In this document: one piece after another, positions 1,293 through 35,340 of the stretch
Layout of the letters: each line of letters begins with the position of its first letter
Numbering within the stretch: the first letter of the stretch is position 1
IMG/VR virus record: IMGVR_UViG_3300005532_000006
Location: 1 to 64,000 of that record
Source of the DNA: a virus
DNA length: 64,000 nucleotides
Strand: one strand, 5' to 3'
Position numbers and translations under genes: made by a program
The notes under the pieces: generated by a model
Seen by the model: only the letters and a program-made list of their open reading frames with translations
The model's database searches: none
Told to the model about the DNA's origin: nothing

Positions 1293-1733
1293 TCACCACC
1301 GCCGCGCGGCGAAGGCCTGGCCCGTCGTCGCGCCGTAGAGGCTGACAGGGCCGGCCGGCTTGTAGCCGGGGGCGGTGACAAACATGCCGCCGTTGGCCGC
1401 GATCTGCAGGCTCGCGCCGCCGGCCGACGCAGCGCCGACATCGGAGATCCACAGCGCCGCCGAGGAATTGTTCTGCACCAGGAAGCCTGTCGGCGGCACC
1501 GCGCCGCCGAACAGCGTCTGCGCCGCGCCGCCGGCCGCGACCGTGCCGCTGCCATCCGCCGCTGGCGCGACCGTGGTCGGCACCACCGGCAGCGGGTTCT
1601 GCGGCCCGACCGGCGCCGCGACGCCCGCCGTCACGGAGCCGGCGGCGTGCAGCGGCACGAGGTTGCCGTTGGCATCGGCGACGGTGGCGAGCGCCTGCAC
1701 CGTCGTGTTGGCATCCTTCACCAGAAGACTCAT
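1293..1733 (-). CDS. Hypothetical phage-like protein (MSLLVKDANTT...)
   Basis: C-terminal part of ORF 1293..2321; its ATG overlaps the terL stop. Confidence 0.7.
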   Translation of the reverse strand: MSLLVKDANTTVQALATVADANGNLVPLHAAGSVTAGVAAPVGPQNPLPVVPTTVAPAADGSGTVAAGGAAQTLFGGAVPPTGFLVQNNSSAALWISDVGAASAGGASLQIAANGGMFVTAPGYKPAGPVSLYGATTGQAFAARRW

Positions 1734-3067
1734 CGGCCCTCTCCTTTCCCGGCGAGCTGGCGGTAGACCTCGAAAATCCCCTCGCCGCCTTTCGGCTCGA
1801 CCAGCAGTTCGGTCAGGGCCCAGACCAGCGCATCGACCCGATCGGGCGAAAACCCCGCCTCGGCCGGGTCGAAATCGCTGGAAAAGGCGCACATCTGGTC
1901 TTCGAGGGCAGGCATCGCGCCGACATGGTGAACGCGGCCTTGTTCGTAGAGCGCCGCCACCGGCTCGGCGCGTGCGACCTTGCCGCGCGAGGCGCGAACC
2001 GCGGCGAAGGCGACGTTCGGGTCGATCATCCGCAAGGTTGCCTCGACCATCTCGCCGCCGTTGTTGACCTCGCCGACGATGCGGTCGGCGCCGTGGGCGC
2101 GATAGGCGGCAATCGCCGTCTTCGCCCATTCCGGCGGCGAATACCGCCCCGAGGCGTCGGCGAGGACGTAGGCCGCGCCCGAGCCGTCCTTGCCGGCGAC
2201 CACGATGCCGGTCTCGTCGGCGTCCTCGCCGCTGCTGACCGCCGGGTCGATCGCGACGACGACCCTCGTCAGCTCCGGCGCCGCCGCGACGCGCGCCGCG
2301 TCGATGACGCCGTGGCTCCACAACGCCCCCGGCACGTCCTCGAGGATTTCCGCCTCGAGCTCCTGGCGGCCGAGGCGCGTGCCGGCGTAGCGGCGGACGA
2401 TCTGCGACAGGAAAGCGGGCGCGAGATTGGCGCGGTTTTCATCCGTCGAGCCGCGGATTACGACTACGGTCGGATCGGCGACGAGCGCGCGAATCAGCTT
2501 CGTCGGCCGCGGCGTCGTCGTTACGACGGCGCGCGGGTCCTGCCCGAGGCGCAGCCCCATCATCAGCATGTCCCACGCTTCAGGGTAGCGCCACGCCGCC
2601 AGCTCATCGCACCAGGCGAGGTCGTGCTGCGGGCCGCGCAGCCGTTCCGGCTCGTCGGCGCTGTAGGTCGTCGCGATCGCGCCGCTCTGCCACGTGATCC
2701 GCCGTTTCGACGGCTCGTAAAGCGGCCGATCCCACGGCGGCGCAATGGCGAGGATGCCGCTTTCGCCCTCGACGATGACGTCGCGCGCATCGGCGGCGGT
2801 CGGCGCCACAAGCGCGACCCGCACCGCACGGCCCGCCCCGACTTCGGCGCGGACGAACTCGGCGCCGGTGCGGGTCTTGCCGAAGCCGCGGCCGGCCAGC
2901 AGCAGCCAGATGCGCCAGTCCCCCTCGGGAGCCAGCTGGCTCGCGCGCGCCCAGAAGCGCCAGTTATGGTTGAGGTGCTTGCATTGCTCCTGCGTGAGGC
3001 CCGCCAGCAGGTTACTCCGCAGCGCCTCCGGCAGCGAGGCGAGCCAGGCGGCGTGCAAGGACCTCAC
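1730..3067 (-). CDS. terL: Terminase large subunit (second element)
   Basis: Walker A AGRGFGKT, Walker B AWCDE, coupling motif TTTP, RNase H-like VVAIDP and PDRVDALVWA. Confidence 0.93.
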   Translation of the reverse strand: MRSLHAAWLASLPEALRSNLLAGLTQEQCKHLNHNWRFWARASQLAPEGDWRIWLLLAGRGFGKTRTGAEFVRAEVGAGRAVRVALVAPTAADARDVIVEGESGILAIAPPWDRPLYEPSKRRITWQSGAIATTYSADEPERLRGPQHDLAWCDELAAWRYPEAWDMLMMGLRLGQDPRAVVTTTPRPTKLIRALVADPTVVVIRGSTDENRANLAPAFLSQIVRRYAGTRLGRQELEAEILEDVPGALWSHGVIDAARVAAAPELTRVVVAIDPAVSSGEDADETGIVVAGKDGSGAAYVLADASGRYSPPEWAKTAIAAYRAHGADRIVGEVNNGGEMVEATLRMIDPNVAFAAVRASRGKVARAEPVAALYEQGRVHHVGAMPALEDQMCAFSSDFDPAEAGFSPDRVDALVWALTELLVEPKGGEGIFEVYRQLAGKGEGR

Positions 3068-3345
3068 GCGCGTCCTCCGCAGGGTCGGGCCGGTCGGGTT
3101 CGTTGGGCCGGCGCGCCGGCGGGTTCAAGAGGCCGAGGTGGCGGGTCAGCGCGTCGAGCGCCGCCTTCTTGTCGTGCAGCTTGACCCGCGGCCCGGAGGC
3201 GCCGCTGCCCGGCACAATCTCGGAGATCGCCGCCGCCTCGGCGTCGCTCAGGTCCTCGGGCCGTTTCAGCACGAACCCATCGGGCCCCCAGTCGGCCACG
3301 CGGCGCAGATCGGCGAAGGCGATGCGGGCGTATTCCTGCAATATG
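3012..3345 (-). pseudogene. terS: 5'-truncated terminase small subunit
   Basis: LQEYARIAFAD...VKLHDKKAALDALTRHLG is the C-terminal half of a terS; the N-terminal HTH part is missing; lies directly upstream of terL. Confidence 0.7.
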
Positions 3346-3441
3346 CAACAGCCCCGCAACCGCAATGGCTTACGATGCGCTTTCCGTCATCTTTTCCGTC
3401 GTTTGTTCTTGGGGCGTGCCAACGTGAGGCGGCCTGAGCCT

Positions 3442-3663
3442 CTAACGACGGCGCTTGGCCCTGCGCAGCGCGATGCTTTTCTCGGCAGGGGGCTTCGGCG
3501 CCGGCAGCGGCTCGACCTCCGCCTCGGGCGGACACAGCTTGCGCATGATCGCCCGGAGCTGCGCGACGCGCGGAGACAGCGGGTAACGATCGGCGTCGAT
3601 GATGCGGCGGAGCGTCTCCGCCAGCACCGCGCACTCTTGCTCGGTGAGGTTCGGGCTTGCCAT
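3442..3663 (-). CDS. Small hypothetical protein
   Basis: 73-aa ORF, LRRIIDADRYPLSPRV motif, normal composition. Confidence 0.6.
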   Translation of the reverse strand: MASPNLTEQECAVLAETLRRIIDADRYPLSPRVAQLRAIMRKLCPPEAEVEPLPAPKPPAEKSIALRRAKRRR

Positions 3664-3710
3664 ATCGGCGATATGGTCAGATGCGGCGAGATAGCGAGTC
3701 GGCAGGACCG

Positions 3711-3914
3711 ATGACCCTGGGCCATGCGGTGCGGGCGCAGGTCCGGCTCATCGTGTGGTGCAAGGCATGCGGCCGCCAAGCCGAACCCGACGTCGCCGCC
3801 GCGGCGTCCACACATGGCGAGGCGTTGCCGGTTCAGGATTGGGCCGCGCGTCTCGTCTGCACAACCTGCGGCAGCCGATCAGCAGATTTTGTCGTCAGCG
3901 GCGCCCGAAAATGA
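3711..3914 (+). CDS. Small Zn-ribbon hypothetical protein
   Basis: WCKACG...LVCTTCGSR, two CxxC pairs. Confidence 0.65.
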   Translation: MTLGHAVRAQVRLIVWCKACGRQAEPDVAAAASTHGEALPVQDWAARLVCTTCGSRSADFVVSGARK

Positions 3915-3929
3915 CGGCTTGCCTCAGGA

Positions 3930-4559
3930 TCACGCCTGCAGTTCGGCAGACCAGTAGAGCCAGCCGCCGAAATCGTCCTTGATGTCGGCCGGCAGGAACT
4001 CGAGCCCGGCCCGGAGCAATTCCGCTCGGCTCGGCCGCCGCGGCGGCCTCAGTGGGCGCATCTGCCCCGCCGACGGCTTGCCTTTGCGGCCGGAGTAGTT
4101 CGGCAGGCTGTTGGCCTTCAGCGCGTTGCACCGCAGGCAGGCCGTGACGATGTTCTCCCACACGGTTTTGCCGCCGCGGGAGCGGGGGGTCACGTGGTCG
4201 TACGTCAATTCCGGCGACGGGAAGCGCTTGCCGCAGTAGCAGCAGGCCATCCGATCCCGCAGCAGGATGTTGCGGCGGCAGAACTTGACCTCACCCGAGA
4301 TCGGCGCGTACTCGCGCAGCATGATCACCTTCGGGATCGCGATCGTCGTCGAGGGCGACCGGAAGAACGCGTCCTCCCAAGTGTCGACGATCGAAGCCCG
4401 ATCGCGCCAGATCGCCGATACGGCGTCTTGTGCTGGGATGATGCTCAGCGGGAACGTGCTGAGCGGATTGCCGTCGGCGTTGAGCACGAGACAACGATGC
4501 TCGGCCGGGCGCAGCGATCTTCGCTGGTGGTGCTCGGAAAGCCGAGCGGCGGCGGTCAT
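3930..4559 (-). CDS. HNH endonuclease (McrA-like), last gene of the tRNA operon
   Basis: RRNILLRDRMACCYCG...TYDHVTPRSRGGKTVWENIVTACLRCNALK; SD-like GGGAGG before the ATG at 4559. Confidence 0.92.
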   Translation of the reverse strand: MTAAARLSEHHQRRSLRPAEHRCLVLNADGNPLSTFPLSIIPAQDAVSAIWRDRASIVDTWEDAFFRSPSTTIAIPKVIMLREYAPISGEVKFCRRNILLRDRMACCYCGKRFPSPELTYDHVTPRSRGGKTVWENIVTACLRCNALKANSLPNYSGRKGKPSAGQMRPLRPPRRPSRAELLRAGLEFLPADIKDDFGGWLYWSAELQA

Positions 4560-4581
4560 GTCGGCCTCCCTTGTGACGGTA

Positions 4582-4655
4582 TGGAGCTGACGGTCGGGAT
4601 CGAACCGACATCGGCGCATTACGAGTGCGCTGCACTGCCCTTGTGCTACGCCAGC
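4582..4655 (-). tRNA. tRNA-Thr(CGT)
   Basis: Cloverleaf, anticodon loop CTCGTAA, CCA end. Confidence 0.9.
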
Positions 4656-4660
4656 ATATC

Positions 4661-4734
4661 TGGTGCGGGCAGAGGGAATCGAACCCTCGTCAACGGCTTA
4701 AAAGGCCGTAGCTTGTCCTTCCAGCTATACCCGC
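4661..4734 (-). tRNA. tRNA-Lys(TTT)
   Basis: Loop CTTTTAA, TTCGA T-loop, CCA. Confidence 0.9.
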
Positions 4735-4738
4735 GGAG

Positions 4739-4815
4739 TGGTGCGCGACCCGAAACTCGAACTCGGAACATCCGGAATTTGAAGCCGGTGCCTCTGCCAG
4801 TTGGGCTAGTCGCGC
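4739..4815 (-). tRNA. tRNA-Leu(CAA), short variable region
   Basis: Loop TTCAAAT, A73, CCA. Confidence 0.8.
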
Positions 4816-4819
4816 GGGA

Positions 4820-4895
4820 TGGGGCGCCCGGTGAGGATCGAACTCACAATCTCCCGGTTCGGAGCCGGGTGCACGGTCCATCGTGCTGCGAGCGC
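4820..4895 (-). tRNA. tRNA-Arg(CCG)
   Basis: Loop CTCCGAA, CCA. Confidence 0.9.
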
Positions 4896-4899
4896 GTGA

Positions 4900-4974
4900 T
4901 GACGAGCCTGCGAGGAATCGAACCCCGATCCGCCGGGTAGAAGCCGGCTGCACTGTCCATTGTGCTACAGGCCC
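4900..4974 (-). tRNA. tRNA-Arg(TCT)
   Basis: Loop CTTCTAC; 3' end GTCA (CCA not encoded). Confidence 0.85.
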
Positions 4975-4981
4975 GTGAGGT

Positions 4982-5053
4982 TGGCGCCCCGCCGAGGAGT
5001 CGAACCCCGCGTCCCGGGTTCGTAGCCCAGGCCCCAGATCCGCTGGGCGAGGC
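4982..5053 (-). tRNA. tRNA-Arg(ACG)
   Basis: Loop CTACGAA, CCA, reduced D-arm. Confidence 0.82.
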
Positions 5054-5062
5054 GAAAGGAAT

Positions 5063-5136
5063 TGGCCGCGCAGACGGGATTTGAACCCGCGTTTCCCTGT
5101 TTGAAGGACAGGTGTCCTGCCTTAGACGACCGCGCG
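5063..5136 (-). tRNA. tRNA-Glu(TTC)
   Basis: Loop CCTTCAA (C33), CCA. Confidence 0.85.
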
Positions 5137-5137
5137 A

Positions 5138-5212
5138 TGGTAGGCCCGGCCGGTAACGCTCCGGCACCTCCGCCGTGTCGAGGCGGCGCACAACCTTCTA
5201 TGCGACGGGCCT
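5138..5212 (-). tRNA. tRNA-Val(GAC)
   Basis: Loop TCGACAC (C33), atypical T-loop AGCGTTA, CCA. Confidence 0.78.
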
Positions 5213-5286
5213 GTACCCGGTAGAGGATTCGCACCCCTGCTGACGCGGTGTGTAGGACCGCCGCTCTGCTGCTGAGCTAACCGGGC
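5213..5286 (-). tRNA. tRNA-Val(TAC)
   Basis: Loop CCTACAC (C33); abuts tRNA-Val(GAC); CCA incomplete. Confidence 0.78.
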
Positions 5287-5291
5287 GATGA

Positions 5292-5369
5292 TGGTCGGGG
5301 CGGGCGGATTTGAACCGCCGGTCTCCTGCTTCCGAAGCAGGCACTTTGGCCAGGCTAAGCTACGCCCCG
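5292..5369 (-). tRNA. tRNA-Pro(CGG)
   Basis: CGGGGCG acceptor, loop TTCGGAA, CCA. Confidence 0.92.
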
Positions 5370-5441
5370 TGGCGCCGACACTCGGAATCGAACCGAGGCT
5401 CCTGCCTTTAGGAGAGGCGGGCGCGATCCGTCGCTGTCGGC
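5370..5441 (-). tRNA. tRNA-Arg(CCT)
   Basis: Loop CTCCTAA, CCA, short D-arm. Confidence 0.78.
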
Positions 5442-5447
5442 CGGAAA

Positions 5448-5523
5448 TGGTCCGGAAGGAGGGACTCGAACCCCCGATATCCTCGCTCCAAACGAGGCGG
5501 TCTAGCCGCTGACCTACTCCCGG
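5448..5523 (-). tRNA. tRNA-Pro(TGG)
   Basis: Loop TTTGGAG, CCA. Confidence 0.9.
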
Positions 5524-5524
5524 C

Positions 5525-6763
5525 TTATCCTTTTACGCACAACACTTGACGAAGCTGGTGCACGATATCGACCAGATCGGCCTGTGCCGCCATCACCGTA
5601 TCGATATCCTTGTACGCCATTGGCGTCTCATCAATGACGCCCTCATCCTTGCGACACTCGACGCCGGCGGTTGCACGAACGTGATCATCGAGCGTGAACA
5701 GCTTCTTGGCCTCAGAACGGCTCATCTTCCGGCCAGCGCCGTGCGAGCATGACATGAAGCTGTCGGGATTGCCCTTGCCGCGCACGATGTAAGAGCGCGC
5801 ACCCATCGAACCGGGAATGATGCCGAGGTCGCCCTCGCGCGCCCTCACGGCGCCCTTGCGTGTGAGCAGCACATTCTGGCCGAAATGGTTTTCGCGGGCG
5901 ACGTAGTTGTGATGGCAATTGACCGCTTCTTCGTTCCACGTGATTCCGGGCTTGCCGAGCGCGCCGACAACCGCGCGCAGAGTCGCATCGAGCATGACGC
6001 GGCGGTTCTCGACCGCAAAATCCTGCGCCCAACTCACCGCTTGCATGTAGTCGTCAAATGCTTCGCTGCCTTCCGGCAGATAGGCCAAATCTTGGTCCGG
6101 CAGGTTAATGAACCAGCGCTTCATGTCGGCCTTGGCGCGGTCGATGAAAAAGCTGCCGATGGCATTGCCGATGCCGCGCGAACCCGAGTGCAGCATGATC
6201 CAGACGCGCTGTTCCTCATCTAGGCAGACCTCGATGAAGTGGTTGCCGGTGCCGAGCGTGCCGAGATGGTGCGGAGCACGCGCCGAGGCTCGCGTAAGTT
6301 TTGGATGCTTCTCGACGATCGCAGCCAGCCTTGCGGCGAGCGACTGGTTGCCGTGCTTGCCGATCATGTAGAGCACGTTCGCCGGCAATTCGCCCCACGC
6401 GCCGCGGTCGTTGATGCCGCCGTTATCGGTGCGGCCGTGCGGCACCGACGCCTCGATCGCGGCACGCATCGGCGCGAGGTTGTCGGGCAAGTCCGAGGCG
6501 GTCAGCGACAGCCGCGCCGCCACCATGCCGCAACCGATATCGACCCCGACCGCAGCCGGGATAATCGCGCCCTTCGTCGCGATAACCGAGCCGACCGTCG
6601 CGCCCATCCCCCAATGCACATCCGGCATCGCGGCGACATGCTTGTAAATGAACGGCAGCCCCGCGACGTTGCGGAGTTGATCAATGGCCATGCGCTCGAC
6701 CGGGACATCTTTCGTCCACATTTTGATCGGCTTCCCGGCGTCCGCGATTACCTCGTAAGACAC
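5525..6763 (-). CDS. rtcB: RtcB family RNA ligase (tRNA repair/splicing)
   Basis: MPDVH, VGVDIGCGM, GTLGTGNHFIE, HSGSRG, NCHHNY, RKGA, IIPGSMG and SCSHGAGR motifs. Confidence 0.97.
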   Translation of the reverse strand: MSYEVIADAGKPIKMWTKDVPVERMAIDQLRNVAGLPFIYKHVAAMPDVHWGMGATVGSVIATKGAIIPAAVGVDIGCGMVAARLSLTASDLPDNLAPMRAAIEASVPHGRTDNGGINDRGAWGELPANVLYMIGKHGNQSLAARLAAIVEKHPKLTRASARAPHHLGTLGTGNHFIEVCLDEEQRVWIMLHSGSRGIGNAIGSFFIDRAKADMKRWFINLPDQDLAYLPEGSEAFDDYMQAVSWAQDFAVENRRVMLDATLRAVVGALGKPGITWNEEAVNCHHNYVARENHFGQNVLLTRKGAVRAREGDLGIIPGSMGARSYIVRGKGNPDSFMSCSHGAGRKMSRSEAKKLFTLDDHVRATAGVECRKDEGVIDETPMAYKDIDTVMAAQADLVDIVHQLRQVLCVKG

Positions 6764-6789
6764 AGGCCTATCTCCTCGGGAAGTTGATA

Positions 6790-6863
6790 TGGCGCTCGCA
6801 GGCGGGATCGAACCGCCGTTCCGGCATCGACAGTGCCGTGTCCTGCCATTGAACGATGCGAGC
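6790..6863 (-). tRNA. tRNA-Asp(GTC)
   Basis: Loop CTGTCGA, G73, CCA. Confidence 0.88.
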
Positions 6864-6939
6864 TCTTGAGGGTGCCGCGGGCGCCTGCTCTTGGACCTAT
6901 GGCGCCGGCGCGGCGCGCCCGATCGTCACCGGGCGGTTC

Positions 6940-7013
6940 TGGTAGGGCCGTGCGGAGTTGAACCGCATCCTGCCGGTTAAGAGCCGGCTGCTCGACCGAT
7001 GAGCTACGACCCC
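6940..7013 (-). tRNA. tRNA-Lys(CTT)
   Basis: Loop CTCTTAA, CCA. Confidence 0.9.
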
Positions 7014-7017
7014 AAGC

Positions 7018-7093
7018 TGGTACTCCTGGCCTGTGCTGCCCAGGCATCTCGCGCTTATCGGGCGCGCGTTCTCGGCTGTTGAACTACAGGAGC
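7018..7093 (-). tRNA. tRNA-Ile(GAT)
   Basis: Loop CCGATAA (C33), T-loop GGCAGCA, CCA. Confidence 0.8.
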
Positions 7094-7100
7094 ATTTTGG

Positions 7101-7184
7101 TGGTGCGGAGGTGTGGTGCTGCCCCACTCCCCGAAGGACGGGTTTTACAGACCCGCTGCCGGAAGCTGCCGGCTTTCCCTCCGC
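7101..7184 (-). tRNA. tRNA-Tyr(GTA)
   Basis: Loop CTGTAAA, variable arm, T-loop GGCAGCA, CCA. Confidence 0.8.
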
Positions 7185-7190
7185 AATGAT

Positions 7191-7265
7191 TGGTGCTGAC
7201 GAGTGGACTTGAACCACTGACCTTCCCCTTACCAAGGGGATGCACCGCCGCTGTGCTACGTCAGC
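7191..7265 (-). tRNA. tRNA-Thr(GGT)
   Basis: Loop TTGGTAA, CCA. Confidence 0.92.
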
Positions 7266-7268
7266 AGA

Positions 7269-7356
7269 TGGAGGAAGGTGGAGGCATCGAACCTCTGTCG
7301 CAGAGCGACACTATGGTTTAGCAAACCATTCGGGGGAGCCTACCCCAGCACCTTCC
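7269..7356 (-). tRNA. tRNA-Ser(GCT)
   Basis: Loop TTGCTAA, long variable arm, CCA. Confidence 0.88.
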
Positions 7357-7426
7357 GTCGTCCCTTCCTGGTGTATCGCTTGCCGCACGACACGACCTTG
7401 TGGCCGAGCCGGCGCAACGCACGAGC

Positions 7427-7514
7427 TGGCGGAGAGCGAGGTACTCGAAACCCAGTCCGTGAGGACCCATCCCGCTTCGAACGGGCGGTGGTGCGCCTGC
7501 CCACTTCACTCTCC
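7427..7514 (-). tRNA. tRNA-Ser(CGA)
   Basis: GGAGAG acceptor, loop TTCGAAG, long variable arm. Confidence 0.88.
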
Positions 7515-7519
7515 AAGAT

Positions 7520-7607
7520 TGGCGGAGCGTGATCGCATCGAACGATCGCCGCAGTTGCGGCGCTGCCGTTTTCAAAACGGTGCGGGGAGCCAACCCCAGC
7601 ACGCTCC
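7520..7607 (-). tRNA. tRNA-Ser(TGA)
   Basis: Loop TTTGAAA, long variable arm, G73, CCA. Confidence 0.88.
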
Positions 7608-7609
7608 AG

Positions 7610-7696
7610 TGGAGGATGGCGTCGCTGCCGACGCGAACACCTTGCGGTGCCAACCGCTTTCCAAGCGGCGCCGGAGGCCGCTCCGGTTCACCATCC
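7610..7696 (-). tRNA. tRNA-Ser(GGA)
   Basis: Loop TTGGAAA, long variable arm, T-loop GTCGGCA. Confidence 0.82.
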
Positions 7697-7702
7697 CAAA
7701 AC

Positions 7703-7781
7703 TGGTACCCCACCGCGGATTCGAACCGCGAACCTCCGCCTTCTGAGGGCGGCGCCTCTGCCGGAGTTGGGCTAGTGGGGC
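7703..7781 (-). tRNA. tRNA-Leu(CAG), short variable region
   Basis: Loop CTCAGAA, A73, CCA. Confidence 0.88.
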
Positions 7782-7783
7782 GC

Positions 7784-7861
7784 TGGTACGCGCGGCCGGA
7801 TTCGAACCGGCACTGCCGAGCGCCTCGGGCTCGTGCCTCCTACCGATTGGGCTACGCGCGC
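7784..7861 (-). tRNA. tRNA-Leu(GAG), short variable region
   Basis: Loop CCGAGGC (C33), A73, CCA. Confidence 0.82.
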
Positions 7862-7868
7862 TTGATCT

Positions 7869-7951
7869 TGGTGCGGGCGACAGGAGTTGCACCTGCACGC
7901 TTGCGGCGGCGGGGTTTAAGCCCGCTGTGTCTGCTGTTCCACCACGCCCGC
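7869..7951 (-). tRNA. tRNA-Leu(TAA)
   Basis: Loop CTTAAAC, variable arm, CCA. Confidence 0.87.
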
Positions 7952-7958
7952 GAGAAAG

Positions 7959-8033
7959 TGGTCGCCCCGAGGGGTGTTGATCCCCTACCTCCCGGATGAG
8001 GGCCGGGTATCCAGACCGCTAGACGACGGGGCG
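7959..8033 (-). tRNA. tRNA-Glu(CTC)
   Basis: Loop CCCTCAT (C33), GTCTAGCGG D-arm, CCA. Confidence 0.83.
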
Positions 8034-8040
8034 CTGGATT

Positions 8041-8112
8041 TGGAAGCCCGCCTCGGGGTCGAACCGAGCCGCACGGCTTCAAAGGCCGCGATACCCTCCT
8101 GGGCCACGGGCC
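8041..8112 (-). tRNA. tRNA-Gln(TTG)
   Basis: Loop CTTTGAA, CCA, degenerate D-arm. Confidence 0.78.
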
Positions 8113-8121
8113 ATGAGTGAA

Positions 8122-8196
8122 TGGAAGCGAACCGGGGAGTCGAACCCACGATTTGCGCGTTCAGAGCGCGCCGTCCTGCCGTTGAACGAGTTCGCC
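8122..8196 (-). tRNA. tRNA-Gln(CTG)
   Basis: Loop CTCTGAA, CCA. Confidence 0.87.
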
Positions 8197-8197
8197 G

Positions 8198-8273
8198 TGG
8201 TGCCGCGGCTCGGACTTGCACCGAGGGCCAATCGCTTACAAGGCGATTGCTCTGCTGCTGAGCTACGCGCGGC
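8198..8273 (-). tRNA. tRNA-Thr(TGT)
   Basis: Loop CTTGTAA, CCA. Confidence 0.87.
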
Positions 8274-8274
8274 T

Positions 8275-8350
8275 TGGGGCGGCGCGCGGGTGCTGGCCCC
8301 GCTTCTTCCCCTCCACAGGGGGACGTGTCCGCTGGTCCACCAGCGCCGCC
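8275..8350 (-). tRNA. tRNA-His(GTG)
   Basis: Loop CTGTGGA, G-1:C73 present, T-loop GCCAGCA. Confidence 0.82.
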
Positions 8351-8360
8351 ACGATGCGAA

Positions 8361-8436
8361 TGGAGTTGCCGGTCGGAGTTGCACCGACATAAGACCCGCT
8401 TTGCAGGCGAGCGCCTCGCTGTTCGGCCACGGCAAC
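8361..8436 (-). tRNA. tRNA-Cys(GCA)
   Basis: Loop CTGCAAA, U73, CCA. Confidence 0.88.
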
Positions 8437-8440
8437 AAAT

Positions 8441-8513
8441 TGGCACCGGCGGAGCAGAATCGAACTCTCCTTCGCGGGTTTGGAGTCCGCGTTGTTCACC
8501 AGAACACGCCCGT
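8441..8513 (-). tRNA. tRNA-Trp(CCA)
   Basis: Loop CTCCAAA, G73, CCA. Confidence 0.85.
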
Positions 8514-8519
8514 ATGAAA

Positions 8520-8595
8520 TGGCTCCCATCCCAGGTACCGCCCCTGGCTGCATCCGCTTAACAGGCGGCGCCGTTCGCTTGCTCGGTCGATGGGA
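8520..8595 (-). tRNA. tRNA-Asn(GTT)
   Basis: TCCC acceptor, loop CTGTTAA, T-loop GGCGGTA. Confidence 0.83.
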
Positions 8596-8601
8596 ATGAA
8601 C

Positions 8602-8677
8602 TGGAGCGGGTAGCCGGACTCGAACCGGTCATCATCACCTTGGAAGGGTGAGGCCCTAGCCTTTGGACGATACCCGC
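8602..8677 (-). tRNA. tRNA-Gly(TCC)
   Basis: GCGGGTA acceptor, loop CTTCCAA, U73. Confidence 0.92.
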
Positions 8678-8686
8678 GTTGAATGA

Positions 8687-8762
8687 TGGTGCCGAGCCGA
8701 GGGATCGCACCTCGATATCCGGTTTTTCGGACCGGCGCATGCACTAGCACTGCCAGCTCGGC
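8687..8762 (-). tRNA. tRNA-Phe(GAA)
   Basis: Loop CCGAAAA (C33), CCA. Confidence 0.85.
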
Positions 8763-8764
8763 GA

Positions 8765-8836
8765 TGGTTGCGGCGGCCGGAGTTGCACCGGCGCGACGCG
8801 GCTTATGAGACCGCGCGGGAACTGTTCCTCACCGCA
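8765..8836 (-). tRNA. tRNA-Met(CAT), possibly initiator-like
   Basis: Loop CTCATAA, acceptor end CCGCAACCA, reduced D-arm. Confidence 0.75.
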
Positions 8837-8844
8837 TCAAGAAA

Positions 8845-8940
8845 TGGTAGGCGTCCTCGGTGCCGCCCCGAGCCGTCCCCGCTGATCTGGCAGGTCTCGG
8901 CCGTTTATAAAACGGCCCCGCGCTGCTGGCGCCGACGCCC
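8845..8940 (-). tRNA. tRNA-Ile(TAT) with long variable arm
   Basis: Stem GCCGT/ACGGC with loop TTTATAA; ~27-nt variable region with CCTGC/GCGGG hairpin; A73, CCA. Confidence 0.78.
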
Positions 8941-8947
8941 GATGAAT

Positions 8948-9023
8948 TGGAGCGGCCAGAGGTGGTCGAAACCTCATCTCGGCATTGGCAACGCCGCGCT
9001 CTCAGCCGTTGAGCTATGGCCGC
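8948..9023 (-). tRNA. tRNA-Gly(GCC)
   Basis: Loop TTGCCAA, U73, CCA. Confidence 0.92.
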
Positions 9024-9030
9024 AAAAGGA

Positions 9031-9104
9031 TGGTGGAGATGGTCGGAATCGAACCGACATTTTCTGCTTGCAGGGCAGAAGTCCTCCCGTTGAACGACAT
9101 CCCC
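9031..9104 (-). tRNA. tRNA-Ala(TGC)
   Basis: G3:U70 pair, loop CCTGCAA (C33), CCA. Confidence 0.88.
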
Positions 9105-9217
9105 GAAATTTCAAAACGAAGATCGCTGCGGCCGGCTTGACGGCTCTTTGCCCCGGAGCTTCCACCGCGACTGCTGTGTCGTGGCGCTGGCTTTTTGCCG
9201 CGCCGTACTGAATGCGG

Positions 9218-9253
9218 AAAATAAAAAACCTCTCGCGGAGTGATCCGGAGAGG
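9218..9253 (-). terminator. Intrinsic terminator (attenuator) upstream of the tRNA array
   Basis: CCTCTCCGGA-TCAC-TCCGCGAGAGG followed by TTTTTTATTTT on the minus strand. Confidence 0.85.
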
Positions 9254-9284
9254 CTCGATCGGTTCCGATCATGTTGCGGGTATA

Positions 9285-9449
9285 CTACCCGAGCGAGCCT
9301 CCTTCCGTACCGCGCCGATCGCACGAATTTTCGGGCATCAAGGACCCGAGCGCGATCCCGCTAAACGGCTTCCGCTGGCCTTGCGACAGCCGCGGCAAGC
9401 CGCTCCGCGTGGCGGCTGGTGCTTTCGCTATGGTCGATAACCACAACAT
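9285..9449 (-). CDS. Putative 54-aa leader peptide (MLWLSTIAKAP...EGGSLG)
   Basis: ATG 9 nt after the -10 box (near-leaderless); its last codons are complementary to the terminator 5' arm. Confidence 0.55.
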   Translation of the reverse strand: MLWLSTIAKAPAATRSGLPRLSQGQRKPFSGIALGSLMPENSCDRRGTEGGSLG

Positions 9450-9458
9450 GGGGCGCGG

Positions 9459-9487
9459 CTTGTGACAGAGCCTCGGGTTAATGTCAA
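9459..9487 (-). promoter_or_regulatory. Sigma70-type promoter of the tRNA operon
   Basis: TTGACA-17 nt-CACAAG followed by GC-rich discriminator CCGCGCCCC. Confidence 0.7.
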
Positions 9488-9536
9488 TATCGAAGATGAT
9501 ATGCGACGCAGACCCTCGCAATCCCCGCCCGGAAAA

Positions 9537-10388
9537 TCAGCGCGCCCGACGCAGCTCTGGCGACGCAATCTTCTTTGGCACGCGTCGGTACCAGACGAGC
9601 GCAAGCGCTGCGTAGAGCGGCCGTTCGTGCGTCAGCGCCATCGCCTCGGCCTCGCGCCGCTCATAGCCGGACGACGCCGCAACGATCGGGCCGACCGCGG
9701 CGGGATCCCAGTTGCCGCGGTAGTCGGGGTCGAACATCAGGAGTTCGAGCGCCCGCACTTCGATCATCTGGATCGGCCGCCGCGTCTTCAGCAGCGACAG
9801 CGCGGTGCGCAAGGCACCAGGGCCATGCGAGCGGTAGAAGTCGATGACGGTCCCGACCGCAACCGTGTCGCCCGGCTTGTAGAGGTCCTTGCGCGGCGGC
9901 GGCGAGCGCGGCACGCGGACACCCGTCTCGTCCATGACCTTCTGGATCGCGATGATTTCGGGGTCGCCGGCGACGAGGGCGGAATGGAACAGCTGCGGTT
10001 TCGTAACCGCGGTGCGGTCGGTGTTGATCGCGATGAACGACTCGGCCTGCCGCGCGACCGAACGCGGCCGGCTGACCAGCACCGGGATCAGCTCGACGGC
10101 GGGGTGCGTCGCGGCGATCGTCGCCGAGTGCTGGCCGTTGGTGATGACGAGGCCGTGCGGCGTCTCGATGACGTTCGGCGCCTGGAACTTCGACCAGTCG
10201 AACCGGCCGAGGATCCGCCGGATCAGGGCGGTGCCTTCCTTGCCGATCCGGCGCTGGTAGGTGTCGTCTACCCACAACGTCGCGGGATCGACCCAGCGCA
10301 GCTCCGGCGGATCGCCGACATCTTCGTTGAAGCGGACCCCATGCAGGGAGGCCGGCGCCAGCGATGCGATCGGGCGCAAGCCGCTCAC
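9537..10388 (-). CDS. ParB/Srx-like N-terminal domain protein
   Basis: LRWVDPATLWVDDTYQRRI...ITNGQHSATIAA...AESFIAIN; GTG start overlaps the sigma factor stop. Confidence 0.75.
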   Translation of the reverse strand: MSGLRPIASLAPASLHGVRFNEDVGDPPELRWVDPATLWVDDTYQRRIGKEGTALIRRILGRFDWSKFQAPNVIETPHGLVITNGQHSATIAATHPAVELIPVLVSRPRSVARQAESFIAINTDRTAVTKPQLFHSALVAGDPEIIAIQKVMDETGVRVPRSPPPRKDLYKPGDTVAVGTVIDFYRSHGPGALRTALSLLKTRRPIQMIEVRALELLMFDPDYRGNWDPAAVGPIVAASSGYERREAEAMALTHERPLYAALALVWYRRVPKKIASPELRRAR

Positions 10389-10912
10389 AGGCCGAGATGC
10401 TCGCGCTCGTCGCGGCCGAGCTCGGCGCCGTGCACCAGCGCGCGCAACGCCTGGCGGGCGCGGGACAGCCGCGATCGCACGGTCCCGACCGGGATCGCCT
10501 CGTACGCCGCCATCTCCTCGTAGTTGTCGGCGCTGAGCGCGGCCTGCATGAGGAGCCGCCGCTGCCCCCGCGGCAACCGGCGCATCGCCGCCTCGACCTC
10601 GCTCAGCAGCCGCCGCGCTTCGGGGTCGACAACGGCGCGGACCTGCTCGACCTGCTCCGGTTCGAGTTCGATCGTGCTCTCGCGAACCGCTTTCCTCACC
10701 GAATTGATGCGCTGGTTGTGCGCGAGCGTCATGAGCCAACCCGTCAGGTTGGTGCCCGGCTCGAACAGATGCCGCTTCGTGAGGGCGCGCATGATCGTCT
10801 GCTGCACCAGATCCTCGGCGTCGGCCGGATTGCGGGTGAGGCTGTAGGCATAGCGCCGCAGCTTGGGAAGGCACGCCAGGAGGTCGGCGTCGGAGAAGGG
10901 TTGCGTCGTCAT
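10385..10912 (-). CDS. ECF-type RNA polymerase sigma factor
   Basis: LRRYAYSLTRNPADAEDLVQ (region 2) and YEEMA...IPVGTVRSRLSRAR (region 4). Confidence 0.92.
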   Translation of the reverse strand: MTTQPFSDADLLACLPKLRRYAYSLTRNPADAEDLVQQTIMRALTKRHLFEPGTNLTGWLMTLAHNQRINSVRKAVRESTIELEPEQVEQVRAVVDPEARRLLSEVEAAMRRLPRGQRRLLMQAALSADNYEEMAAYEAIPVGTVRSRLSRARQALRALVHGAELGRDEREHLGL

Positions 10913-10972
10913 AACCCCGCTCCCCTAGCACTGCGGTTGCTTAGGATCGGTCTACTTCGGCCCGGATGGCTT

Positions 10973-11476
10973 TTACCGCGCCGGACAATTCTCATCGCGA
11001 AAGACGGCGCAGTATCCGACGCGCCAGTCCGGTGCGAGGAACCATCCCTGCGCCGTCGCCAGCGGCACGCGGCCGTCGCACACCTCGCGCGCCGCGTAGG
11101 CTTCAAACCGATCTTTCGCCGGATAGCCCCATAGGCCGCCCCGGTATTGCGGCCATAGGTTGCGGAGATCGTCGGCGCCGCCCAACGCCAGAGGCACACG
11201 ATGGTCAATTTCCCACCGGCGCCGCTCGGGCCCAACCGGGACGGCCATGCCGTACTCGGCAAAGACCTGTGCCTTCATCTCCGGCGTGGTGAAGCGATGA
11301 GCACGCGAGTAGGACCCGCCGCCAGCGTGGCCGCAGATCGCATCGGCGTCTGTCGAGGCGACGACGCCGGGGGTCAGAACCGGATCGGGGGTCAGCATCG
11401 CTGTCGGCGGATCGGCGGTGGCATTTGCCGCAAGTGCGTATGCCGCAATCATTGCGGCAACGGGACGGCTTAGCAC
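10973..11476 (-). CDS. HNH-like protein with N-terminal signal-like segment (start uncertain)
   Basis: PDPVLTPG...WEIDHRVPLALGGADDLRNLWPQ. Confidence 0.7.
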   Translation of the reverse strand: MLSRPVAAMIAAYALAANATADPPTAMLTPDPVLTPGVVASTDADAICGHAGGGSYSRAHRFTTPEMKAQVFAEYGMAVPVGPERRRWEIDHRVPLALGGADDLRNLWPQYRGGLWGYPAKDRFEAYAAREVCDGRVPLATAQGWFLAPDWRVGYCAVFRDENCPAR

Positions 11477-11677
11477 CAGTCTCGGCTGCCGTTCTTTGGT
11501 AAGGCAAGGTGGCGAAGATCTGCGCCTGTCGGGGCGGAGTGCGTTCATGAGCTGGTCGGGAGCCGGTTGCAGCAGTGTTGCGATCACCATATTCGTAAAG
11601 ACGGTGTATCAAAATATCGCAATTTGCGCTATTGCCGTCGCAGTGCACTGCCGCTGCACGTGAGGGAGAGGGAAATC

Positions 11678-12280
11678 ATGGACACTGCATCGACCATCGA
11701 CCGTGGCCTGCCGCAGCAGATCGCCGAACTCGGGCGCATGATCTACGCGTTGCCGACGCCCAATGCCGCCGCAGCCGAGGCGCGCGCCGGAATGCAGCAT
11801 GCGTTGACCGCGTACTCCGCTGCCGGTTGGGGCTATTCGCTCGGCACCCGGCAACAGCCCGCGGCGGCGACACCGCCGGCGGCGCGTACCGGCCGCGGGC
11901 GCCCGCGCAAGACCATCGCGACCGGGCGCAACCGGCGCACGAGCGCCGGCGCATCGTCGTCGTCGACCGCGCAGCAACCGCTGGGCAGCCGCATCCTCGC
12001 CGCGATCCCGTCCAACGGCATCACGCCGGCAACGCTGACGAGCCGCTTCACCGACCGGCCGAACCTGGTGGCGAGCGTCATCTCGCGCGCCGTCAAGAGC
12101 GGCAAGATCGTCGAGCGCGACGGCAAGTTGTTCGTGCCGGAGGCCAAGGTGGCGGACATCGACCGGGCGCAGCGCCGCCGGGGTCGGGCCGCGCAGACCG
12201 GCAGGCAGCGCGCCACCGGCACGGGCGGCAGCACCGGTGCCGTCACGGAGGCGCAGCCGCTCGCGGCGCAAGCCGGCTGA
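11678..12280 (+). CDS. Hypothetical basic DNA-binding protein (AT-hook-like GRGRPRK, winged-helix-like core)
   Basis: SD GGGAGAGGG before the ATG; composition. Confidence 0.6.
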   Translation: MDTASTIDRGLPQQIAELGRMIYALPTPNAAAAEARAGMQHALTAYSAAGWGYSLGTRQQPAAATPPAARTGRGRPRKTIATGRNRRTSAGASSSSTAQQPLGSRILAAIPSNGITPATLTSRFTDRPNLVASVISRAVKSGKIVERDGKLFVPEAKVADIDRAQRRRGRAAQTGRQRATGTGGSTGAVTEAQPLAAQAG

Positions 12281-35265: not shown

Positions 35266-35283
35266 CGCCTGGCAAAAATAGTC

Positions 35284-35340
35284 GATATTGACGCTATTGA
35301 CAAGAGCGCCTATAGGCTATATGTTCAATGCGTTCAATAG
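35284..35340 (+). promoter_or_regulatory. Promoter with inverted operator repeats
   Basis: TTGACA(35297)-17 nt-TATGTT; TATTGAC twice on the left and GTTCAAT twice on the right. Confidence 0.65.

Follow-up and report, generated by a model that had tools for sequence, protein, structure and literature searches.

A candidate leader-peptide attenuator ahead of a phage tRNA array with an embedded rtcB gene

The window analyzed here is the first 64 kb (64,000 nt) of a 90,867-bp IMG/VR virus record with an estimated completeness of 83%. The record is that of a phage, and terminase, tail, lysis, and ECF sigma genes are found close to the locus. In the direction of minus-strand transcription, the surrounding features are the following.

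14828-14202, minus strand: endolysin gene, coming after the tail and baseplate genes with which the minus-strand gene order starts
12339-12296, minus strand: strong terminator, between the endolysin gene and a 205-aa ORF
10912-10385, minus strand: ECF-type sigma factor gene (Sigma70_r2 and r4_2; phrog_1740)
10388-9537, minus strand: gene for a ParB-like protein, directly upstream of the element under study
9105-9217, minus strand: 113-nt spacer between the terminator of the element and tRNA-Ala
4582-9104, minus strand: proposed regulated unit, consisting of a tRNA block (9104-6790), rtcB (6763-5525), and a second tRNA block (5523-4582)
Downstream of the array, minus strand: genes for an HNH endonuclease, TerS, and TerL (3067-1730)

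The 205-aa ORF, the ECF-type sigma factor gene, and the ParB-like gene form a three-gene unit bracketed by terminators at 12339-12296 and 9253-9220. No other canonical terminators were found on the minus strand from 30 kb to 1 kb, and since these two flank the sigma/ParB unit on either side, the second one has an ordinary job in any case. A simple scan missed this second terminator, probably because its stem is bulged. From 9220 to TerL (1730-9220 of the window), no canonical terminator was detected on the minus strand; the sole match, at 6194-6143 inside rtcB, is doubtful. Therefore, read-through transcripts could reach the HNH, TerS, and TerL genes, and these three genes may form one transcription unit with the tRNA array and rtcB. 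A gap of 430 nt without a long gene, as seen at this locus, is unusual for this compact phage genome. The gene caller of the record chose an antisense ORF here (9271-9465), which was rejected since it has no relatives.

Distant relatives of the ParB-like protein belong to prophages of Hyphomicrobiales and other Alphaproteobacteria, so the host of this phage is probably an alphaproteobacterium, with Hyphomicrobiales likely. A copy of the ParB-like protein that is identical except for the start residue (P0009) is encoded on a 146,364-bp contig (NCBI, ENA, Logan). The phage is therefore probably also present within a larger assembly, possibly as a prophage.

The rtcB gene is embedded among tRNA genes, which total 29 with ARAGORN or 32 at a relaxed threshold. 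The first tRNA of the array is tRNA-Ala, starting at 9104. Three minus-strand tRNAs were seen only at the relaxed ARAGORN threshold: tRNA-Phe-GAA (8687-8762), tRNA-Trp-CCA (8425-8515, with a 12-nt overlap with Cys-GCA), and tRNA-Ser-CGA (7427-7514). The array also has gaps of 77-178 nt, which may hold further aberrant tRNAs. A sigma-70 scan and a further search gave no convincing promoter candidate in the spacer at 9217-9105. An ECF-type promoter in this spacer, GGAAG-N16-CGTC at 9163-9139, was rejected because the motif occurs at chance frequency.

The element itself lies between the ParB-like gene and this spacer. Its parts, in the order of transcription, are listed below.

9482-9492, minus strand: -35 region, GATATTGACA, with TTGACA at 9487-9482; within the sole AT-rich patch in the spacer
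9459-9467, minus strand: weak -10 box, TGT and then CACAAG (9464-9459), separated from the -35 by 17 nt and from the ATG by 9 nt
9285-9449, minus strand: leader ORF of 54 sense codons and a TAG (ATG at 9449-9447, TAG at 9287-9285), without a Shine-Dalgarno sequence
9309-9459, minus strand: predicted multi-branch RNA domain inside the ORF, with a long hairpin at 9410-9359 (z -4.9 and -2.5)
9294-9307, minus strand: antiterminator 5' strand, CGGAAGGAGGCTCG, leader codons 48-52
9277-9291, minus strand: predicted small 6-bp hairpin holding the stop codon TAG
9257-9270, minus strand: predicted second small hairpin, GATCGGAACCGATC, in the antiterminator junction
9246-9257, minus strand: antiterminator 3' strand, CGAGCCTCTCCG, with 9253-9246 common to the terminator 5' arm
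9218-9253, minus strand: intrinsic terminator, a bulged 10-bp hairpin (9253-9229) followed by T6AT4 (T-tract 9228-9218)

A preliminary description of this DNA had proposed a TTGACA-17-CACAAG promoter with an ATG 9 nt later. Both are present, with a poor -10. A TG precedes the CACAAG at 9467-9466, and the promoter fails a sigma-70 scan because the -10 is without its final T. Most genes of this phage have a Shine-Dalgarno sequence, but none is found before the leader ATG at 9449. By analogy with the phages discussed at the end, the message is probably leaderless or nearly so.

Two further sequence matches involving this region were also seen. The AT-rich 11-mer TCGATATTGAC of the -35 region (about 9482-9493, minus strand) recurs at 35282-35292 on the plus strand, in a well-formed promoter/operator region. 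It could be a strong -35 with an upstream element or the site of a common regulator. The region of the start codon, CATGTTGTGGTTAT (9437-9450, minus strand), is complementary at 12 of 14 positions to ATACCCGCAACATG after the stop codon (9270-9283, minus strand), and a long-range pairing of the two ends of the ORF is possible.

The terminator stem is formed by CCTCTCCGGA and TCCG-c-GAGAGG around the loop TCAC, with one bulged C. The core stem has an energy of -14.6 kcal/mol, or -19.1 kcal/mol when the flanks are included. A terminator followed by the tRNAs had been claimed, and the hairpin, the T6AT4 tract, and the tRNA-Ala gene from 9104 bear this out. The same is true of a proposed 12-bp pairing that would exclude the terminator. 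The strands 9307-9294 and 9257-9246 match exactly over 4 + 8 bp, interrupted by an AG bulge, and their helix overlaps the terminator 5' arm by 8 nt, so the two helices are mutually exclusive. A longer alternative register pairs 9301-9289 with 9262-9250. The antiterminator duplex has an energy of -20.9 kcal/mol, compared to -16.5 +/- 2.2 kcal/mol for dinucleotide shuffles, and is stronger than 96% of them (P = 0.04). The leader stop codon lies 7 nt past the antiterminator 5' strand.

Folding of the RNA was predicted in several ways. For the stretch 9460-9205, the predicted fold has a z of -4.9, and locally the two states are equal in energy (-31.9 kcal/mol for the antiterminator state and -31.2 kcal/mol for the terminator state). 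When the upstream RNA is included, the terminator is favored at equilibrium, with a margin of 0.4 to 9 kcal/mol that varies with the 5' end. The preliminary description had suggested checking co-transcriptional folding, and a series of minimum-energy folds of growing length, starting at the ATG, gave the order that it implied: the antiterminator is present with the 3' end from 9250 to 9232, and the terminator appears only from 9229, when its last base is complete. If the 5' end lies within the ParB-like gene, the antiterminator is weaker in the fold series, and such transcripts should therefore terminate more readily than those from the leader promoter.

The effect of a ribosome was modeled by masking its footprint. 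With the footprint at the stop codon, the terminator forms. With footprints at earlier codons, the antiterminator stays for transcripts starting at 9452 or 9460, and it is lost in two of three cases for a 5' end at 9536. It had been proposed that a ribosome at the stop would cause termination, and that a stalled or absent one would allow read-through. The geometry and the fold model agree with this, but the terminator wins at equilibrium, so read-through with no ribosome present would depend solely on the order of folding. The leader holds no strong candidate for a region 1 that could occupy the antiterminator strand without translation. A search of 4000-12000 against Rfam at E up to 1 gave tRNA matches only, with no riboswitch, T-box, or other leader RNA.

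Next to the structure stands the open frame. As described earlier, the 54-codon ORF has no single-amino-acid run and uses 17 of 20 amino acids; these counts are correct. An open frame of this length arises in 24% of dinucleotide shuffles, so the ORF alone is not significant. Its codon-usage score per codon is 0.00, compared to 0.39 +/- 0.21 for real genes, and among all genomic ORFs with 45-70 codons, 29% reach at least this score. Three-base periodicity is marginal (GC3 0.76, P about 0.05 to 0.06), with a phase that matches the upstream ParB-like gene. A repeated regulatory codon of the classical type is absent. Rare codons and the use of 17 amino acids had been taken as signs of a sensor. 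Both are present, but random sequence of this composition gives the same and they are therefore no evidence of design. Likewise, high codon diversity was rejected as a sign of design, since the 34 distinct codons of the leader match the mean of shuffled sequence.

The leader shares the frame of the ParB-like gene, which stays open for 84 codons beyond its TGA at 9539-9537, and the GC3 phase continues at a lower level. Stop-codon read-through from the ParB-like gene was rejected because its homologues are 280-283 aa long and end within about three residues of each other, so they do not extend into the leader. The shared frame is probably a coincidence.

The codons of the leader were also compared to the anticodons of the array, in a test devised post hoc with the data already seen. 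For 38 of the 54 codons, the 32 array tRNAs include an anticodon that is an exact Watson-Crick match. This count compares to 30.1 +/- 3.5 in open shuffles (P = 0.016) and 31.8 +/- 3.7 in windows of real genes (P = 0.054). In the remaining five frames of this DNA, 25-28 of 55 codons match exactly; in the leader, 24 of the first 28 do. The leader codons are thus biased toward the array anticodons, which moderately supports an attenuator.

Relatives of the leader are rare. An exhaustive phmmer search of 1.84 billion proteins gave a single true homologue, P0011 (E 1.8e-8), and a profile search of 5.8 billion proteins again returned only P0011. This protein is encoded on a 3,552-bp JGI metagenome contig, has 54 aa with 56-58% identity, and has the same start position and length as the leader. 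In a protein comparison over the strongest predicted hairpin, at 9410-9359, two loop codons differ and the arms are mostly kept; this pattern would fit a constraint on the peptide or on the RNA alike. Three further matches (P0010, P0012, and P0013) were taken to be compositional: they are long proteins that match only 30-42 query residues at 30-38% identity, two of them in only two stretches.

Searches through the neighboring genes did not reveal a second such locus. In viral, metagenome, and genome collections, the ParB-like protein had relatives of at most 41% identity, none with a tRNA array, and contigs of 14-70 kb encoding ParB-like proteins with 49-64% identity yielded no leader homologue. 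Relatives of RtcB (up to 72% identity) and TerL (up to 77%) had no comparable array, with at most 8 tRNAs per locus. In total, about 250 loci were found via ParB-like, RtcB, or TerL, and none had a comparable array or similarity to the leader. No match was obtained with an exact terminator-derived pattern or a back-translated query against viral contigs, or with blastn and tblastn of the leader and P0011 against the 250 or so loci and GenBank phages. Mesorhizobium phage Cp1R7A-A1 has no tRNA array beside rtcB.

Taken as a whole, we give about an even chance to the element being a leader-peptide transcription attenuator that gates the phage tRNA array and rtcB. The preliminary description had interpreted it in this way; the anatomy is present and fits together, and the interpretation is partly supported. 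In such an attenuator, a weak host-type promoter (TTGACA, 17 nt, TGT-CACAAG) would begin transcription no more than a few bases ahead of the ATG at 9449, and the 54-codon frame would be translated as a leaderless or near-leaderless message. As the RNA emerges, 9307-9294 would pair with 9257-9246 and lock most of the terminator 5' arm, so that RNA polymerase would continue into the tRNA genes. A ribosome that keeps pace and reaches the stop codon at 9287-9285 would cover the antiterminator 5' strand; the terminator would then form and the transcript would end at 9218. Slow decoding anywhere in the leader would raise the synthesis of tRNAs and RtcB, and fast decoding would lower both. Such slow decoding could result from scarce or cleaved tRNAs, or from inhibition of translation in general.

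A simpler explanation, which we regard as unlikely, is that a plain terminator ends the sigma/ParB transcript and that the ORF and the pairing are chance features of a GC-rich spacer. The array would then be driven by an unrecognized promoter in 9217-9105, for example one recognized by the ECF sigma factor that the phage itself encodes, or by leaky read-through. This would suit the position of the only two canonical minus-strand terminators around the sigma/ParB unit, the phage sigma factor two genes upstream, the poor -10 box, and a leader ORF that is statistically unremarkable and without a Shine-Dalgarno sequence; the antiterminator P of only 0.04 could also be chance. However, the terminator is 284 nt from the ParB stop codon, which is long for a compact phage, and another phage (P0011) keeps the intervening stretch as an intact frame. 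The bias of this frame to the array anticodons would not be expected either, and neither would the same layout before the tRNA blocks of unrelated alphaproteobacterial phages. In addition, the spacer offered no promoter, only the ECF-like motif at chance frequency.

The fold raises another explanation. Its z of -4.9, together with differences to P0011 that fall in a hairpin loop with the arms kept, could reflect an RNA that acts without the ribosome, with the open frame incidental. This could be a stand-alone structured small RNA that spans about 235 nt (roughly 9455-9218) or a switch in which a protein or RNA antitermination factor overcomes the terminator, as at lambda PR'-tR', or in which the leader senses a ligand or protein. 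For a switch, the equal energies of terminator and antiterminator resemble the expression platforms of riboswitches, and the HNH, TerS, and TerL genes come soon after the module, with no terminator detected beyond its own. The start, stop, and length of the frame are nevertheless kept in P0011, and an anticodon bias specific to one frame is unexpected for a non-coding RNA. No Rfam family matched at E up to 1, no Q-like antiterminator was recognized among the neighboring genes, and a processive antiterminator needs no built-in antiterminator helix. We consider a ribosome-independent element improbable. Finally, an ordinary gene for a 54-aa small protein with its own terminator, unrelated to tRNA control, would fit the conserved frame (P0011) and the marginal periodicity (GC3 0.76, P about 0.05), but it is very unlikely given a peptide rich in Gly, Ser, Arg, and Pro in which disorder is expected, codon usage unlike that of the phage's genes, no ribosome-binding site, no family match, and a 3' end that forms part of a structure competing with the terminator.

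If the element is an attenuator, a more specific and tentative reading, which we hold to be possible but doubtful, is that it serves as a general gauge of translation capacity. The leaderless 54-codon frame would sample most anticodons of a near-complete tRNA set, and lagging ribosomes would open transcription into 32 or more tRNAs and the RtcB repair ligase. Defense nucleases cutting tRNAs, a host pool ill-suited to the phage codons, or poisoned translation would be the triggers, and transcription might also run into the HNH and terminase genes. An attenuator at this locus would mean that phages regulate their own tRNA supply by direct readout of decoding speed, with ties to tRNA-cleaving defense systems, phage tRNA arrays, and RtcB repair. 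Leader-peptide attenuation is textbook knowledge for amino-acid operons, and our literature searches gave no published account of it controlling tRNA genes.

The classical attenuators of enterobacterial amino-acid operons (trpL, hisL, leuL, thrL, and ilvL) have a short promoter-proximal frame and a terminator before the regulated genes. Their antiterminator overlaps the terminator 5' arm, and a ribosome at the stop codon masks it. The present leader shares the short frame, the terminator, the overlapping antiterminator, and the placement of the stop codon, which is about 57 nt from the end of the hairpin, near the trp distance. Unlike in the trp type, the genes proposed to be regulated encode tRNAs and an RNA ligase rather than biosynthetic enzymes. 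The leader also differs in having 34 codon types and no regulatory codon run, no Shine-Dalgarno sequence, and no clear region 1, and it is about twice as long as trp-type leaders.

A second known module, lambda PR'-6S RNA-tR', combines a promoter with a strong terminator and, between them, a short structured transcript of roughly 200 nt, and is subject to Q antitermination. The present element likewise has a promoter, a short structured RNA, and a terminator just upstream of packaging genes. Q-type antitermination does without an RNA helix competing with the terminator.

Among published systems, the closest in function is the trn operon of Anabaena sp. PCC 7120 (PMC8421152, PMC10272220). This long additional tRNA array has a functional link to rtcB and is co-regulated with it; it is off by default and comes on under translational stress. 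There, the TrcR repressor acts by binding direct repeats of 9 nt that cover the -10 box and the transcription start, and the words leader, attenuation, and terminator do not occur in the paper on this control. The Anabaena array is cellular and lies on a megaplasmid, whereas the present one is in a phage. The TrcR repeat motif has two chance-level matches elsewhere and none in the leader, and there are no tandem 9-nt direct repeats in 9100-9560.

The closest parallel in layout comes from the Dolichocephalovirinae. The region before a tRNA block of the Val-Ile-Gln-Asn-Arg type was compared in the published genomes of CcrColossus, phiCbK, CcrRogue, and two Brevundimonas phages. All five have a TTGAC -35, 17 nt, a -10 box, and, after exactly 7 nt, an ATG without a Shine-Dalgarno sequence, which from its sequence we read as a leaderless message. 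The missing ribosome-binding site in the present leader would thereby be accounted for. The frames have 31-32 codons, with an abundance of those for the amino acids that the downstream tRNAs carry (Tyr, Arg, Asn, Gln, Phe, Val, and Ile). These frames vary by substitutions and whole-codon indels only, and they contain GCG GGC C, a copy of the terminator 3' arm. A terminator, a spacer of about 130 nt, and the tRNA block follow. The genome paper on phiCbK does not describe these modules of mini-ORF and terminator, and neither "leader" nor "attenuat" occurs in it (PMC3556154). Past the terminator and before the tRNAs, a conserved GGAGATCG followed by an ATG was seen at four Dolichocephalovirinae loci (L259 at 9920-9960, L261, L263, and L264); in CcrColossus, the second, very short frame after GGAGATCG reads Met-Asn-Asn-Gly-Gly and stop.

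These modules and the present leader have the same order of parts, with a TTGAC -35, a 17-nt spacer, a weak or non-canonical -10, no ribosome-binding site, the antiterminator strand inside the frame, 110-150 nt from the terminator to the tRNAs, and alphaproteobacterial hosts, in the present case probably so. In CcrColossus, the stop codon is in the loop of a small hairpin, and here it is likewise held in a small hairpin. CcrColossus also has GATATTGAC at the head of a plain tRNA promoter, and its -10 region reads TGTGAGACA at the position homologous to TGTCACAAG here. The differences are in the distance from -10 to ATG (9 nt here and 7 nt in the Caulobacter and Brevundimonas phages), in the antiterminator strand (the final codons here and about 10 codons before the stop there), and in scale: 54 codons precede a near-complete tRNA set here, compared to 31-32 codons before a block of 7-12 tRNAs. 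Their leaders are dominated by the few amino acids of their tRNA block and the present one is not. Searches with blastn and tblastn, including GenBank phages, detected no sequence homology between the two groups of leaders. The resemblance is an analogy of design without detectable homology, and it raises the prior for an attenuator. If this holds, the pattern would reach beyond the large Caulobacter phages into another phage lineage, with a genome of about 90 kb and Hyphomicrobiales as probable hosts, and beyond blocks for a few amino acids to a generalist leader before a near-complete tRNA set.
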